Assembly (NCBI GenBank): GCA_041664605.1
Contig: JBAYKO010000002.1
Span: 7,453 to 71,452 of the forward strand
Length of the DNA: 64,000 bases
Origin: Minisyncoccota bacterium
GTDB taxonomy: Bacteria; Patescibacteriota; Minisyncoccia; Phycocordibacterales; UBA9973
Direction of reading: 5' to 3'
Below, one piece after another: positions 894 through 9,677 of this stretch. Position 1 is the first letter of the stretch. The number at the start of each line of letters is the position of its first letter. The translations under genes were made by a program, and so were the position numbers. The notes beneath the pieces are model-generated. The model was given only the letters and a program-made list of their open reading frames with translations. It was not told where the DNA came from and ran no database searches.

Positions 894-1325
894 CTATTTT
901 ATTTCACCTCCCAAAGCTTCGATCTTTTTTCTTGCTGATTCAGACACTAGGCAATCTGAAATAATTATTTTTTTTGTTAATTCTCCTGTTGCTAAAATTT
1001 TTATCAAACTTATTCTTCCTCCGAGTTTTTTTATAATATTTTTACTAAACAATGAATTAGGCGTAACTTTTTCTCCATCTTTAAAAAGTTTGTCGATGGT
1101 TGAGAGATTAATTGCAACTGGTTTTTGTTGAGTAGTAGTAAATCTGTATCCTCTTTTTTTAGGAATCTTTTTTATTATGTCTCTTAGTTCTGGTCTCTTT
1201 TTTCTTCCAGCTCTTGAGTTCTGTCCTTTGTGTCCCTTGCCAGAAGTTTTACCACGGCTTCCTCCTCTACCGATATACTTTTTCTTTCTATTTTTAGTTT
1301 TTCTTTTTATTTCGTGTAATTGCAT
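894..1325 (-). CDS. rplO: 50S ribosomal protein L15
   Basis: 143 aa, Gly/Lys-rich N-terminus GRGGSRGKTSGKGHKGQ typical of uL15; spc operon position. Confidence 0.9.
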   Translation of the reverse strand: MQLHEIKRKTKNRKKKYIGRGGSRGKTSGKGHKGQNSRAGRKKRPELRDIIKKIPKKRGYRFTTTQQKPVAINLSTIDKLFKDGEKVTPNSLFSKNIIKKLGGRISLIKILATGELTKKIIISDCLVSESARKKIEALGGEIK

Positions 1326-1329
1326 GGTT

Positions 1330-2004
1330 TTATTCTTCTTTTTCTTTTAAATTTTCTGGAATAATATCATCTAAATTAATTTCTTCATCTATAATTGGTG
1401 CTGTATAAACTTTTTCTGTTAGATATGAAAGTGCTTTCATTGTTGCTCTGGCAGTATTATATTTATTTTTACTTCCAGAAAGAACTTTTGAAGTAACATT
1501 TTTAACACCTGCTAAATTCAAAATATCTCTTACAGAACTTCCAGCTACCATTCCCTTTCCTCTGTTTGGCATAATCATGACAACTGAAGCACAGAATTTT
1601 GCTTCAACATCATGAGGAATAGACATCTCTTTTGTTGTTCTAATCTTTATCATGCTCTTTTTTGCGCTTCTTAGGGCCTTTCCAATAGCAAGTGCTGTAT
1701 CCCCGGCTTTTCCAGTTCCAAGACCAACAGAACCCTTTCTGTCTCCTATAACCATAGCAACGCTAAAACTAAATCTTCTTCCTCCTGAAACGACACGAGT
1801 CACTCTTCTTATGCTTATGATTTTTTGATCAAATTCAGGCTTAGCTTTTTCAAAAGACGGTCTTCCACCCCTTCTATCGTTTGATTTTCTGCCATTACTT
1901 TCTCCTGGTTTTCTAGGAGAAAAACCTGGCTTTCTAGGTAGAAATCCTGGCTTACTTCCATTTGTACTTCCTGTGTTTGGTTTTGTATTTTGAACTTTAT
2001 CCAT
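1330..2004 (-). CDS. rpsE: 30S ribosomal protein S5 with ~55-aa N-terminal extension (PRKPGF repeats)
   Basis: Core RVTRVVSGGRRFSFSVAMVIGDRKGSVGLGTGKA matches uS5; sits between L18 and L15, with no L30 gene. Confidence 0.9.
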   Translation of the reverse strand: MDKVQNTKPNTGSTNGSKPGFLPRKPGFSPRKPGESNGRKSNDRRGGRPSFEKAKPEFDQKIISIRRVTRVVSGGRRFSFSVAMVIGDRKGSVGLGTGKAGDTALAIGKALRSAKKSMIKIRTTKEMSIPHDVEAKFCASVVMIMPNRGKGMVAGSSVRDILNLAGVKNVTSKVLSGSKNKYNTARATMKALSYLTEKVYTAPIIDEEINLDDIIPENLKEKEE

Positions 2005-2946: not shown

Positions 2947-3336
2947 CTACCAAATCTTAAACAATAATTCTCCTCCGACCATTTCCTTTTTAGCTTCTTT
3001 GTCTGTTAAAATTCCTTTTGGGGTTGATAGTACAAAAATTCCAAAACCATTTTTAAATGGTTTGATTTCCTTTACTCCTGCATACATTCTTCTTGATGGT
3101 TTAGAAATTCTTTTTACATCATTAATTCTTGGTTTATCATCTCTGAAGGCAACACCTATTTCCAAAACTGGAAAATCCTTTGTTGTCTTTTTTGTTACTG
3201 ATTTAACATAACCTTCTTTTAAAAGACAATTTGCAATTGCGTGTTTGATTTTTGAATAAGGTACAGTAATAGAATCTCGGGAAGCATTTCCTGCATTTTT
3301 TATCATTATTAACATTGATGAAATTGGATCAGTCAT
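2947..3336 (-). CDS. rpsH: 30S ribosomal protein S8
   Basis: 129 aa MTDPISSMLIMIKNA...SRRMYAG, uS8-like. Confidence 0.9.
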   Translation of the reverse strand: MTDPISSMLIMIKNAGNASRDSITVPYSKIKHAIANCLLKEGYVKSVTKKTTKDFPVLEIGVAFRDDKPRINDVKRISKPSRRMYAGVKEIKPFKNGFGIFVLSTPKGILTDKEAKKEMVGGELLFKIW

Positions 3337-3348
3337 TTTTTTATATTT

Positions 3349-3534
3349 TTACCATGAAGATTTTCTAACACCAGGAACCATTCCTTCATTAGAAAGTTCT
3401 CTAAAACAAATTCGACAAAGACCAAAATCACGCATAAAACCATGCTTTCTGCCACACTTAAAACAACGATTTACTTTTCGCGTACTAAATTTGGGTGTTT
3501 TTTTTGATCTTGCGATAACTGAAGTTTTTGCCAT
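3349..3534 (-). CDS. rpsZ: 30S ribosomal protein S14 type Z (zinc-binding)
   Basis: 61 aa with CFKCGRKHGFMRDFGLCRICFRE zinc ribbon. Confidence 0.9.
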   Translation of the reverse strand: MAKTSVIARSKKTPKFSTRKVNRCFKCGRKHGFMRDFGLCRICFRELSNEGMVPGVRKSSW

Positions 3535-3540
3535 AAAAAT

Positions 3541-3571
3541 TAGGTTCTAGCTTCTAGGGGCTAGGTTCTAG
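3541..3571 (-). repeat. (CTAGAAC)n-type heptad repeat array directly 5' of the rpsZ start codon
   Basis: Minus-sense ACTAGAACCTAGCCCCTAGAAGCTAGAACCTAATTTTTATG. The same heptad array recurs at 19989-20022, 44041-44071, 50771-50800, 55329-55355, 54181-54220 and 61253-61283. Confidence 0.7.
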
Positions 3572-3687
3572 TAAATCAAGATATCTCATTCTTTTTCTTA
3601 AATACTTCAATAAATACGAGTACTTAAGGAGAAGAACGGATCTTTAACCTACCAAACTATATTAGCAAATTTAAAAATGTTGTCAAA

Positions 3688-3855
3688 CCCATTTTAAAAC
3701 CATCAGAAAAGGACGGTCCTTTTCTGATTAAAAAGCAAGTTTGAGAGCAAGTCAATTTTAAAACCCTTCGGGAAGGACCGTTCTTCCCGGATTCTGCGAA
3801 AGTCTTGCTTTCGCAGAATCAACCCATTTTAAAACCCCCTAAATAGGGGGTTTTA
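3688..3855 (-). repeat. Three tandem ~65-70-bp units, each CCCATTTTAAAACC followed by a GC-stem hairpin; the last hairpin is a T-tailed intrinsic terminator
   Basis: CCCATTTTAAAACC at 3688, 3753 and 3823. Hairpins are tcagaaaaggacggtccttttctga, ttcgggaaggaccgttcttcccgg, attctgcgaaagtcttgctttcgcagaat and aaaaccccctaaatagggggtttt. Confidence 0.6.
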
Positions 3856-3866
3856 TTAAAAAACTT

Positions 3867-4697
3867 TTATTTATTCTCGAACTTACGTTCCTTGGTTTCA
3901 GGATCAGTTACTATTCCTCTCTTAAAAACAATCGGACCAACTTTTTCAATTTGTTCTTCTTTTTTATTTTCAATTAAACGATTAAATGGACTATTATCTT
4001 TATTTCTTTGATCGTATCCAATCTTGATAATTTGTTCTTCCATTCTATTAAAAGCAAGTAAAAGATGTATTTTTCTTTCTTTTGGTGACATTTCTTCAAA
4101 ATTTTCATTATGACGTCCCCACCATTCACCTTTATTGTTTGGTTTTGTACCAAAATAACTCCCATTAATCAATTCATATGAGCAATTAGGGCAAATGGTA
4201 GTCTCATAATAAAGTGGTTCCAAACAATTAGAACAAATATTATTTTTTACTTGAAATCCACCATGATACACCCAATTATCTTTAAGGGAGCAAGCAAAAA
4301 TACCGAATTTTTGATGTTTAAACAAGCGACCAGTTTTTATTTTATTTCTTTCACTTCCATAAAGAGTTAAGCAAAATTCCCGTCCCTCTTGTGCTATTTC
4401 TTTTATTTTCTCAATTTCTTTTCTTTCAGAATTGTTTTCTACATCATTTGCTGTGATTGTAATAAATCGGGCAAAATGATAGGCATTCAAAAGATATTTT
4501 CTTTCTTTTGCATACCCATAAAGACTTTTAATCTTAAAGAAAGAATTTTTTTGACGCTCTATATGAGCTTTAAAACTTTTATCAAGATTTGGGAAAAATT
4601 CCGGACCACTTGGATAATGCCTATAAATAAAGAGTGTTTTCCTTATTTCATCTATGTATGAATTCATTAACGTCTGGGCAAATATTCTATTTTCCAT
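3867..4697 (-). CDS. Hypothetical 276-aa protein with a C-terminal CxxC...CxxC zinc ribbon, inserted between rpsZ and rplE
   Basis: Long ORF with CSNCLEPLYYETTICPNCSYE. It has its own upstream motif TTTACTTTTCT and a downstream terminator, and no recognisable family. Confidence 0.6.
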   Translation of the reverse strand: MENRIFAQTLMNSYIDEIRKTLFIYRHYPSGPEFFPNLDKSFKAHIERQKNSFFKIKSLYGYAKERKYLLNAYHFARFITITANDVENNSERKEIEKIKEIAQEGREFCLTLYGSERNKIKTGRLFKHQKFGIFACSLKDNWVYHGGFQVKNNICSNCLEPLYYETTICPNCSYELINGSYFGTKPNNKGEWWGRHNENFEEMSPKERKIHLLLAFNRMEEQIIKIGYDQRNKDNSPFNRLIENKKEEQIEKVGPIVFKRGIVTDPETKERKFENK

Positions 4698-4764
4698 TTC
4701 AATATATTTAATTTACTTTTCTACCCCAACCTTACCACAACCAAATAATTAGTCAATGAAAAAG

Positions 4765-4790
4765 AAAAGCGGCCATTATTGGCCGCTTTT
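4765..4790 (-). terminator. Intrinsic terminator (aaaagcggccattattggccgctttt)
   Basis: GC stem flanked by A/T runs just downstream of the 4796..5269 stop. A degenerate copy lies at 5344-5371 after rplE. Confidence 0.6.
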
Positions 4791-4795
4791 TAACA

Positions 4796-5269
4796 TTAAT
4801 GCATATTTTGGAGAAGTTGATTGAGCGTTTTATCAATATCAGCAACAACGCTTTCTGCTGATTGTTCAAGTATTAAAGCTCTTTCTTCTGATTTCGCTAA
4901 TAATTTATTTTTCTTTCTTAAAGAAGAAGATTCGGTTGCTTTAGAAAGATATTTATTAATTTTCTTTACATCCTTCTTCATTCCTTTTACTTTTTCACTT
5001 AAACTATTAGCAAAGTCAATCATTTGATTAACCGCTTCTTTTTTCTCTATATCTGAATCAGATATTAATTCACTGTAATCTTTGCAAGCAACAACTAATT
5101 TCTTACAGGAATTAGCCGTTGTGTCCAAGCATAATTTTAATGCCTTAATATCCTCCTTTAAAGACCTAATTTCTTCATTAGTATTCTGGTACTGACTTTT
5201 TTTGGCTTGACCAAAGATGTTAACACTGACAACAATTGATAAAATCGCTAAAATTACTAGTTTTTTCAT
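4796..5269 (-). CDS. Hypothetical secreted/lipoprotein-like coiled-coil protein (157 aa), inserted in the spc operon
   Basis: N-terminal signal peptide MKKLVILAILSIVVSVNIFG; the rest is charged and coiled-coil. Confidence 0.55.
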   Translation of the reverse strand: MKKLVILAILSIVVSVNIFGQAKKSQYQNTNEEIRSLKEDIKALKLCLDTTANSCKKLVVACKDYSELISDSDIEKKEAVNQMIDFANSLSEKVKGMKKDVKKINKYLSKATESSSLRKKNKLLAKSEERALILEQSAESVVADIDKTLNQLLQNMH

Positions 5270-5401
5270 TTTTACTGATTTAATGTTCTGTTTGTTTTAT
5301 CTAGTAAACATAATATCATTAAAAATATATTAGTCAAGCCAATTAAAAAACAGCCCTTATGGCCGTTTTTTACTTTACAAACTTTATAACTTTCTACTTT
5401 T

Positions 5402-5947
5402 CTAGTCTTCTTTCTTAAATGGAACTCCAATAGCTTCAAAGAATTTTATTGCTTCTTCTTTACTCTTAGCTGTTGTAACCAATGTAACCCCCATTCCAAA
5501 AACATCTTTTAATTCTTCATCGGCAGTTTCAGGAAAAATTGTATGTTCTTTAATTGAAAAAGTCATATTACCAATATTGTCTACTGATTTTCTGGTTAGT
5601 CCTCTAAAGTCTTTTGTTCTAGGAATAACAATATTAAAAAGCTTATCTAAGAAAGAATACATTCTTCCCCCTCTCAGTGTTACTACAACTCCAACAGGAT
5701 CTCCTTCTCTTGTCTTAAAAGAAGCAATTGATTTCTTGGCTCCCCTAATTGATCCTTTCTGGCCAGTCATCTTTGCTAATCTACCTAAAATAAAATCATT
5801 TCTATTTTTGTCTTTTTTCACACCTGAACCAGTTCCGGAATTTAAAACAACCTTAACCATTTTAGGTGATGCCATTTTATTTTTGTATCCAAAATCTTTT
5901 TTCATTGATTCAAATGCTTTTATTTCTCTTTGTTTTACTGTTTCCAT
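5402..5947 (-). CDS. rplE: 50S ribosomal protein L5
   Basis: 181 aa; MASPKMVKVVLNSGTGSG and the rest match uL5. Confidence 0.9.
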   Translation of the reverse strand: METVKQREIKAFESMKKDFGYKNKMASPKMVKVVLNSGTGSGVKKDKNRNDFILGRLAKMTGQKGSIRGAKKSIASFKTREGDPVGVVVTLRGGRMYSFLDKLFNIVIPRTKDFRGLTRKSVDNIGNMTFSIKEHTIFPETADEELKDVFGMGVTLVTTAKSKEEAIKFFEAIGVPFKKED

Positions 5948-9152: not shown

Positions 9153-9247
9153 CTAATACGATTAGGTTATTTTGAGCCTGTTAGTTATCTTAACAAATTT
9201 AAAGATAGTGTCAACTTTATTTATATAAAAACCTATTAATATCTTGG

Positions 9248-9332
9248 GGGGTTGACCCGGCAGTAGAGCTTGGTGATGCTCTTTTAGAGCCGTGCTTTGC
9301 ACATCTCCAAGTCTCACTGCCGGGTTGACATA
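9248..9332. other. Long imperfect hairpin in the enlarged L2-S19 spacer (stem arms GTTGACCCGGCAGTAG / CACTGCCGGGTTGAC)
   Basis: Inverted repeat of about 15 bp; the ~50-nt interior holds a further GAGCTTGG/CCAAGTCTC pairing. A TTGACA...TAAGAT promoter-like sequence lies downstream on the minus strand. Confidence 0.5.
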
Positions 9333-9380
9333 AACTCCCAAAAGGTAATCTTGGGGTAGAAATTCTTTAAATTACATAAA

Positions 9381-9629
9381 ATGGTTGTAATTATTGGTGC
9401 CTTTCTTATCTGCGCAGCACTTTTGATAGTTTCTACACTAACAACTTTGTACTATTTAACACTGTTACATGACGCAGAAAAGAAGAAATTGGGAGAAGAA
9501 ATTATTAATTCTTACAAAAGAGAATACTCTTTTTTTAAGAACATATCTTGGATCTTTTTTTTCATCGCTGGAACATTAGCAGTTTGTCTATTTTTAATAG
9601 ATAAATTCCATATACTAGTGATAAAATAA
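9381..9629 (+). CDS. Small 82-aa two-TM membrane protein encoded antisense inside the L2-S19 spacer
   Basis: Two hydrophobic helices; a terminator follows directly (9645-9670). Confidence 0.45.
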   Translation: MVVIIGAFLICAALLIVSTLTTLYYLTLLHDAEKKKLGEEIINSYKREYSFFKNISWIFFFIAGTLAVCLFLIDKFHILVIK

Positions 9630-9644
9630 TAAAGTTCTTATTGT

Positions 9645-9670
9645 AAAAAACCGCCAAATGGCGGTTTTTT
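9645..9670. terminator. Bidirectional intrinsic terminator (aaaaaaccgccaaatggcggtttttt)
   Basis: Perfect GC stem with A/T runs on both sides, immediately after the rplB stop and the 9381..9629 stop. Confidence 0.7.
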
Positions 9671-9677
9671 ATTTAAT

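Follow-up and report, generated by a model that had tools for sequence, protein, structure and literature searches.

In the 64,000-nucleotide stretch of Minisyncoccota bacterium contig JBAYKO010000002.1 analysed here (the window, to which all coordinates refer), the ribosomal protein (r-protein) genes for L5 and S14 lie 1867 bp apart, both on the minus strand, and the spacer between them holds two open reading frames (ORFs) of 157 and 276 amino acids (aa), two strong terminator hairpins and an array of four hairpins. Judging from synteny, the L5|S14 break is ancestral and lineage-wide, and only the genes found in it, referred to below as the cargo, are genome-specific. The unit downstream of the break opens with a conserved structured leader that is probably an independently evolved candidate S8 autoregulatory operator heading the distal half of the split cluster, since its invariant asymmetric loop has the architecture of the S8 site in helix 21 of 16S rRNA. 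Overall, we see the locus as a split r-protein cluster with an accessory-gene hotspot, both of known kinds, combined with a new candidate r-protein leader. The features of the interval and its flanks are as follows.

5402–5947, minus: rplE (L5; ORF and Pfam Ribosomal_L5/L5_C, E=9e-30), which closes the upstream r-protein unit (S19...L24-L5)
5345–5371, minus: terminator-like hairpin after L5, related to the one at 4765–4790, AAAAAACGGCC-ATAA-GGGCTGTTTTTT (−15.6 kcal/mol, z=−3.1)
5310–5337, minus: promoter-like site for the 157-aa gene, TTGACT-16-TATTAT with TG (promoter scan)
4796–5269, minus: 157-aa ORF (MFA6397398.1, WDK96_00940), with a hydrophobic, signal-like N-terminal segment and weak coiled-coil-type profile matches
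4765–4790, minus: strong terminator-like hairpin after the 157-aa gene (11-bp stem with 6 GC pairs, T-run, −17.6 kcal/mol, z=−5.4)
4729–4756, minus: weak promoter-like site for the 276-aa gene, TG before the hexamer in TTGACT-16-TAAGGT (read from the sequence; below the scan threshold)
3867–4697, minus: 276-aa ORF (MFA6397397.1, WDK96_00935), cytoplasmic, with CSNC...CPNC; a helical domain and a CxxC...CxxC zinc ribbon
3830–3855, minus: hairpin A, predicted to terminate the 276-aa gene, AAAACCCCC-loop-GGGGGTTTT, then GGTTTTAAAATGGGTT
3790–3820, minus: hairpin B, a perfect 13-bp palindrome GATTCTGCGAAAG/CTTTCGCAGAATC (z=−5.1) with no T-run on either strand
3748–3793, minus: junction module C, hairpin at 3769–3789, then GGGTTTTAAAATTGACT; a diverged duplicate of module D
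3684–3729, minus: junction module D, hairpin at 3702–3728, then GGTTTTAAAATGGGTTTGACA; its T-run and A-tract enter the −35 hexamer of the S14 promoter
3659–3686, minus: S14-operon promoter, TTGACA-16-TAATAT with an extended −10 (TGC ahead of the hexamer), TGCTAATAT
3568–3654, minus: structured 5′ leader of the S14-S8-L6... unit (~87 nt), with P1, P2, P3 and an invariant asymmetric loop; candidate S8 operator
3541–3571, minus: degenerate CTAG-containing 7-nt repeat between the leader and the S14 AUG (4.4 copies, 75% matches)
3349–3534, minus: rpsN/rpsZ (S14, 61-aa zinc-ribbon form; ORF and Pfam, E=4e-22), which heads the downstream unit
2947–3336, minus: rpsH (S8; ORF), starting 12 nt after S14; proposed ligand of the S14 leader

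Read along the minus strand, the cluster runs L3, L4, L23, L2, a gap, S19, L22, S3, L16, L29, S17, L14, L24, L5, S14, S8, L6, L18, S5 and L15. Assembly chimerism can be rejected as the source of this arrangement: an independent Logan contig from SRR18595301 (L001) carries the identical L24-L5-157aa-276aa-S14 order, and NCBI lists both cargo ORFs (WDK96_00940 and WDK96_00935) in a Candidatus Paceibacterota metagenome-assembled genome. An earlier note on this DNA had placed a zinc-ribbon ORF of 276 aa, a coiled-coil ORF of 157 aa and terminators between L5 and S14, and we find all of these within a few bases of where it had put them.

To place the break in context we used 80 loci from GTDB species representatives, fetched with an L5 query (L5 identity at most 73%) and all from Patescibacteria (labelled Nomurabacteria, Paceibacterota and Yonathbacteria). 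The 53 loci that hold both genes have an L5-S14 gap of 72–4854 bp, with a median of 1392 bp; it exceeds 150 bp in 50 of them, reaches at least 400 bp in 40 and falls below 100 bp in only one, and a further 12 loci continue for at least 5 kb after L5 without S14. The rplE-rpsN spacing of Escherichia coli is 14 bp. When gap lengths are compared over 18 neighbouring r-protein pairs, L5|S14 stands out as the extreme case: at 15 of the other 17 junctions the median is at most 33 bp and no gap exceeds 500 bp. Gaps of more than 150 bp are also found at L24|L5 (22 of 70 loci, up to 5.2 kb) and at L2|S19 (13 of 32), and, as L24|L5 has opened in many relatives, L5 is isolated with cargo on both sides in some genomes; in the window the L24|L5 gap is 14 bp. 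It is the 50 gaps above 150 bp, together with the 12 loci in which S14 does not follow within at least 5 kb, that point to an ancestral break. The earlier note had taken L5 and S14 to be normally adjacent and the operon to have been interrupted locally, in this genome; the comparison supports neither view, and the local interruption was a misreading of a lineage-wide feature. The note had also held that an arrangement universal and conserved in the lineage would speak against its proposal, and that description fits the break but not the inserted genes.

What varies between relatives is the cargo. Of 105 gap ORFs, 63 are singletons, and cargo lies on either strand; its Pfam content includes PG_binding_1, sigma factors, cytidylate kinase, a Na/Ca exchanger, a desaturase, an NHL-repeat protein and transporters. 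Cargo-free relatives retain 160–350 bp that comprise a terminator, a TTGAC...TGnTAnnAT promoter and the structured leader. In 16 related loci, all from one subclade (for example L020:6756-8153 and L050:2495-2950), the gap holds a conserved secreted PG_binding_1 protein of ~450 aa, accompanied in 8 of the 16 by an opposite-strand DUF2177 membrane protein; some cargo is therefore stably inherited within subclades.

A recent mobile or foreign cassette that broke an intact spc operon in this one genome would account for cargo genes that are orphans or nearly so, and for the occurrence of the 276-aa family in unrelated contexts elsewhere, which implies that the gene has moved during evolution. Such an insertion is, however, hard to reconcile with a break present in essentially all of the 53 relatives and with the terminator, promoter and leader kept by those free of cargo. 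Furthermore, there is no integrase, transposase or flanking target duplication at the locus (nor any integrase or transposase among 83 gap ORFs of the relatives), and the GC content of the cargo, 0.28–0.32, equals that of the flanking r-protein genes. Searches of the cargo against PHROGs, PADLOC and viral contigs gave either nothing or weak coiled-coil noise (an Rz-like spanin at E=0.002, LmuB, ZorA), and we reject a phage or defence origin. By synteny the one-genome insertion is already largely refuted, and we consider it very improbable.

The edges of the break carry predicted transcription signals that recur across the lineage. A terminator-like hairpin with a GC stem and T-run lies within 150 nt after the L5 stop codon in 59 of 79 loci, usually at 10–50 nt, and TGnTAnnAT stands 13–45 nt upstream of the leader in 38 of 43 genomes, with the full TTGAC-N-TGnTAnnWT in 21 of the 43. 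In the window, a GC-rich stem followed by a U-tract, as in intrinsic terminators, is present at 5345–5371, 4765–4790 and 3830–3855. The earlier note had proposed that the operon is divided into separate transcription units, and the terminator after L5, the promoter- and terminator-like element of each cargo gene and the consensus promoter before S14 agree with this as far as sequence and comparison can tell.

These elements could also be read as parts of a single long read-through operon, in which the hairpins would serve stability or processing, the promoter-like motifs would be internal boosters and the cargo would ride along. S10-spc-alpha clusters are often co-transcribed and intrinsic terminators can leak, and not every hairpin in the window is a good terminator: B has no U-tract, and C and D, with AU-rich stems and a 2–3-nt spacer before the T-run, would for that reason be weak ones. 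A read-through operon would nevertheless have to pass three canonical GC-stem/T-run terminators in series, in a lineage that maintains the terminator after L5 and the promoter before S14, and the opposite-strand cargo of several relatives is incompatible with simple read-through. We regard this reading as unlikely.

Immediately downstream of the S14 promoter lies a conserved element of the spacer, the ~87-nt leader; its window copy starts at about the predicted +1, and 33 nt separate its end from the S14 AUG. Alignment A3, made with MAFFT from 36 leaders and blind to structure, supports the order P1, asymmetric loop, P2, internal loop, P3: in total, 86.1% of cells are paired as against 28–49% when the partners are slid by 1–3 columns, compensatory changes occur in 19 of 21 pairs, and the covariation score is 0.566 as against 0.08–0.16 for the slid controls. 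RNAalifold independently gives the same helices, with double changes in 17 of its 20 pairs. Searched at E≤1e-3 over the window and the 80 loci (862 kb, both strands), covariance model R1 matched 42 sources, once in each genome; every match sits directly upstream of S14 and on its strand, and the rest of the 862 kb is free of matches. Six of the matches came from outside the seed (L060, L045, L010, L047, L053 and L057), and the window leader scores 62.6 bits. The more distant relatives L065, L068, L070, L074 and L076-L081 gave no R1 match. The leader is always directly upstream of S14-S8 (the median S14|S8 gap in relatives is 17 nt), and it ends at most 33 nt before the AUG in 25 of 43 genomes, the end of P1 lying 6–33 nt before the S14 AUG in most.

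Like the Rfam leaders of L10, L20, S15 and other r-proteins, this element is a conserved structured 5′ untranslated region (UTR) that covaries and is probably bound by a protein encoded downstream, but unlike them it belongs to none of the 4227 families of Rfam 15: no family reached its gathering threshold, and only miRNA-like hairpins matched below it. A survey that lists 20 candidate r-protein leaders includes no S8 or S14 leader (Eckert & Weinberg 2020, PMC7247131). The earlier note had given rpsZ a (CTAGAAC)n leader; the weak repeat is there, at 3541–3571, but it is not conserved in any relative, we do not treat it as functional, and the conserved element just upstream of it was missed.

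The loop resembles the S8 site of 16S rRNA. Across 43 sequences its core reads N-(A/G)-A-U-C on the 5′ strand and G-A-U-A-U-(U/C) on the 3′ strand, and the helices around it vary freely. All 43 leaders agree in the core U, C, G and A and in the second bulged base, an A, and the first bulged base is U in 40. In the window leader the 5′ strand is G3642 A3641 U3640 C3639 and the 3′ strand G3585 A3584, the bulged U3583 A3582, then U3581 C3580. The S8 site of helix 21 consists of unpaired A595, the pairs A596:U644 and G597:C643, bulged U641 and A642, and the pairs U598:A640 and C599:G639; A642 is invariant and provides the sole base-specific S8 contact that is conserved (PMC4176348). Two base triples also belong to the site: (G597-C643)-U641, or a combination isosteric with it, and A595-(A596-U644). 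Columns 12 / 13:142, 14:141 / 139–140 / 15:138, 16:137 of A3 form an asymmetric loop of this same topology, in which the equivalents of U598, C599, G639, A640, U641 and A642 are identical to the rRNA bases; the A642 equivalent is A in 43 of 43 leaders. Covariation is perfect in both pairs that flank the bulge on its outer side: the 596:644 equivalent is A:U in 33 leaders and G:C in 8, and the 597:643 equivalent is A:U in 40 (38 with U641 and 2 with C641) and G:C in 2. As for the register, the two pairs flanking the 2-nt UA bulge show no mismatch in 72 cells, whereas the thermodynamically preferred alternative, 14:139, has 2 mismatches and no covariation.

Run with filters off on the E. coli 16S locus, R1 has helix 21 as its sole match, in the same register (UAAUC...GAUAUU in the leader model, AAGUC...GAUACU in the rRNA, the latter sequence verified against 5426 genomes). 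The score, 8.2 bits with E=6.3, is not significant in itself, and it is the position and the register that are telling: this match to the 75-nt helix 21 in the right register is one of three in ~19.8 kb of strand-positions, which makes chance unlikely. The core is not uniform among leaders, L007 having the E. coli-type GUC/GAUAC and L010 having GUC/GAAAC, the latter presumably a Bacillus-type variant. A scan of metagenome contigs for 16S genes with the leader-type core (GGGCGTAAAG...AATCC...GATATT) was uninformative: the 80 stretches inspected of at least 120 retrieved were chance matches in coding DNA.

S8 is the established regulator of the E. coli spc operon, which it controls through an rRNA mimic whose operator overlaps rplE, and this operator RNA is reported to be restricted to Gammaproteobacteria (PMC3616713). 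The leader resembles that operator as an mRNA stem with a variable distal part and an asymmetric loop that mimics helix 21, located in an S8-encoding operon and close to a translation start. It differs in sitting in the rpsN 5′ UTR, at the 5′ end of a separate transcript, instead of overlapping the rplE start inside a longer operon, and in having a core A:U where E. coli has G597:C643. The two RNAs share no sequence homology, and R1 finds no match at the rplE operator when searched on the E. coli spc region. The E. coli translational operator at the rplE start is reportedly that of Cerretti/Nomura 1988 and Merianos 2004, and it is surveyed in PMC3616713.

Several observations speak against S8 as the ligand, or at least weaken the comparison. 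Apart from the leader belonging to an mRNA rather than to rRNA, the 597:643 equivalent is A:U rather than the rRNA G:C in all but a few leaders, the 595 equivalent is mostly U rather than A (U in 28 of 43, A in 4), and 3′ of the C:G pair, a helix step deeper, there is an extra 1-nt bulge. The helix 21 used is that of E. coli, not of the lineage's own 16S, and the R1 score on it is, as noted, not significant. Finally, in ~40% of genomes 38–142 nt separate the end of the leader from the AUG, a distance less suited to simple ribosome occlusion. The leader could thus be real and have another role, whether as the binding site of S14 or another protein encoded downstream, as a 5′ stabilising stem-loop, which like this stem would start at the predicted +1, or as a transcription attenuator. 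We treat this as possible but doubtful: invariance falls on precisely the nucleotides of the S8 core (UC/GA, the UA bulge and its invariant A) while the helices drift, a plain stabiliser would need no invariant asymmetric loop, S8 is encoded in the same unit, 12 nt after S14, and S8 already regulates spc through an rRNA mimic in E. coli (PMC3616713).

Three of the relatives in which R1 found no leader (L078, L079 and L080, one of them labelled Taylorbacteria) share another motif ~60–120 nt upstream of S14, AG(U/C)GAUUGGAAGC...GCUAACCAAUC, which may represent a second leader class for the same operon.

Taking S8 as the probable ligand, we propose that L5 ends one transcription unit at its intrinsic terminator and that S14 opens the next (S14-S8-L6-L18-S5-L15...), which would start from the conserved extended −10 promoter of sigma-70 type and yield an mRNA beginning with the ~87-nt stem-loop. 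We consider it most likely that S8, made from the unit's second gene, binds this leader when in excess; P1 would thereby be locked close to where the ribosome lands, so that S14 and the genes coupled to it downstream would be translationally repressed. The region between the L5 terminator and the S14 promoter would be transcriptionally neutral, and genes could therefore be gained and lost there without polar effects. In the window the cargo would consist of two monocistronic orphans, one for an exported coiled-coil protein of 157 aa and one for a zinc-ribbon protein of 276 aa, each bracketed by a module of terminator hairpin, T-run, A-tract and TTGAC, followed by an array of three further, gene-less junction modules (two of them putative diverged duplicates) and one extra palindrome; the stacked terminators would keep read-through from upstream away from the regulated S14 promoter and leader. 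That these parts – split units, an S8-operator leader, a neutral site with variable cargo and a stacked-terminator array – belong together in one explanation is, in our judgement, somewhat more probable than the reverse. Counting against it, beyond the departures of the leader from helix 21, are the propensity of r-protein clusters for read-through, the imperfections of hairpins B, C and D, and the cargo itself, as no function is assigned to either ORF and there is no homolog of the 157-aa ORF to vouch for its expression.

The hairpin array merits separate consideration. The motif CCCATTTTAAAACC occurs at 3688, 3752 (with 2 mismatches) and 3823, at spacings of 64 and 71 nt and with a hairpin beside each copy; allowing up to 2 mismatches, the 64 kb contain 5 matches as against 1.9 expected, and the two outside the spacer are unrelated sites. 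On either strand, the fold of the 332-nt non-coding spacer is much more stable than that of shuffled sequence (z=−8.7 and −9.7). Where the earlier note had seen a three-unit tandem repeat plus hairpin, the three copies are thus real, but the hairpins number four, and the units are better described as terminator-promoter junction modules. Five junctions, namely those after L5 and after the 157-aa gene and those of hairpins A, C and D, align to a shared layout in which an A-run and a GC-cored hairpin are followed by a T-run, an A-tract, TTGAC and, ~17 nt on, a −10-like hexamer. Strict hairpin/T-run/TTGAC modules number 5 in the 64 kb, and 3 of the 5 fall inside this 1.9-kb interval. Over 46 nt, modules C and D share 72% identity, and their stems differ by 3 compensatory double substitutions with 12 of 13 pairs kept, so the hairpin itself has been under selection. 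The most economical reading is that the array represents stacked terminators or insulators that arose from duplicated terminator-promoter junctions. To see the modules without genes as traces of lost cassettes is speculation. Hairpin B has a terminator-type hairpin on either side and could function as a protein operator instead of as an RNA element.

The stability of the fold on both strands and the compensatory changes that preserve the stems of two units would also fit a small RNA gene or a dispersed repeat of the repetitive extragenic palindromic (REP) or miniature inverted-repeat transposable element (MITE) kind with no part in termination. The motif, however, is confined to the spacer within the 64 kb, Rfam 15 (4227 families) offers no family for the array either at gathering thresholds or permissively (E up to 10), and the units share their architecture with the junctions after L5 and after the 157-aa gene; we think it quite unlikely that the array is of either kind. 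The only gathering-level Rfam matches in the window are 4 tRNAs. A CRISPR array is rejected, as the repeat is 14–16 nt long and present in 3 copies with palindromic hairpins as 'spacers', where repeats of at least 23 nt and unique, non-palindromic spacers are needed. A riboswitch or T-box was considered and likewise rejected.

With its fixed position between core genes and cargo that differs from genome to genome, the site resembles accessory-gene hotspots, islets and integron-like arrays, and, as in integron-like cassette arrays, short units are parted by similar junction sequences. It differs from these in having no integrase, attC-type sites, tRNA or mobile-element genes, in the separate promoter and terminator of each unit, and in its location inside an r-protein cluster. 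We reject an integron, which would have an adjacent tyrosine-recombinase integrase, attC sites and cassettes without promoters, since no integrase ORF lies in or beside the interval and the cassettes carry their own promoter-like sites. One could go further and suppose that in Paceibacteria the L5|S14 spacer forms a cassette array without an integrase, in which promoter-ORF-terminator units are gained, lost and duplicated by recombination between junction modules, gene-less modules being what lost cassettes leave behind, and that it is tolerated, and perhaps exploited for expression beside the most highly transcribed genes, because the S8-mimic leader took over regulation of the distal spc genes. 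We offer this as a long shot.

Both cargo genes look like ordinary strain-specific accessory genes, orphans or nearly so. In a word-index search against 5.8 billion protein clusters the 157-aa protein has zero homologs, matching only itself; the name 'conjugal transfer/entry exclusion protein' given to it by JGI is not supported by any profile search. A sub-threshold match to the Rfam L20_leader on the minus strand at 4755–4859 (26.6 bits against a gathering threshold of 58.7, E=0.017) overlaps both the terminator of the 157-aa ORF and the 3′ end of the ORF itself, and we judge it to be chance similarity of a hairpin. The 276-aa protein too matched only itself by word index. An exhaustive HMMER scan of 1.84 billion representatives did bring together a family of 11 proteins that share the motifs IAQEGR, RLF and CSNCxEP...CxxCxYELI; by their sequences, these relatives are a genuine family, small and very rare. 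Its other members lie in unrelated neighbourhoods, none of them beside r-protein genes, and context therefore gives no clue to function. Against Pfam DZR the 276-aa protein scores 16.1 bits, below the cut-off of 27.3 (E=0.013), and a single CxxC...CxxC ribbon is all that the family keeps, as opposed to the double ribbon of DZR. The AlphaFold model (predicted local distance difference test score 79.7) consists of a helical domain and a small beta/zinc-ribbon element, and gave nothing significant in PDB or BFVD.

Uncultivated bacteria are binned and placed in phylogenies with 16 syntenic r-protein genes as the standard backbone, and the break runs through this block, which should accordingly not be assumed to be contiguous or a single operon. 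Eight of the 80 related contigs (L002, L003, L011, L042, L051, L059, L061 and L075) end ~1.1 kb or less after L5. A hypervariable, lineage-wide break would explain such frequent ends, which would be expected if strain-level heterogeneity at the hotspot breaks metagenome assemblies. To our knowledge, almost nothing is known about gene regulation in the Candidate Phyla Radiation (CPR), and in the S14 leader there is now a candidate, open to testing, for a second S8 autoregulatory RNA that evolved independently. The L5|S14 site, for its part, would be a natural neutral landing pad next to core genes that could serve in studies of how genes turn over in streamlined genomes.

Elsewhere in the cluster, L15 (894–1325) follows S5 (1330–2004) after 4 nt with no L30 gene between them (window 894–2004), which fits the fact that CPR bacteria are not known to have L30. 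S5 has a low-complexity N-terminal extension of ~60 aa, and L22 and S19 have lysine-rich C-terminal tails. In the S10-type part of the cluster L2|S19 is also broken in the window, by a 552-bp gap (9153–9677) with a bidirectional terminator directly after L2 (9644–9671), an opposite-strand ORF of 82 aa with two transmembrane segments (9381–9629) and a promoter-like site, TTGACA-17-TAAGAT, ahead of S19. This gap also holds a GC-richer element of ~100 nt (9245–9345) with no match in Rfam and with very stable folds on both strands (−45/−54 kcal/mol; z=−5.3/−7.0); it might be a small RNA that has escaped annotation or the 82-aa gene's 5′ UTR.

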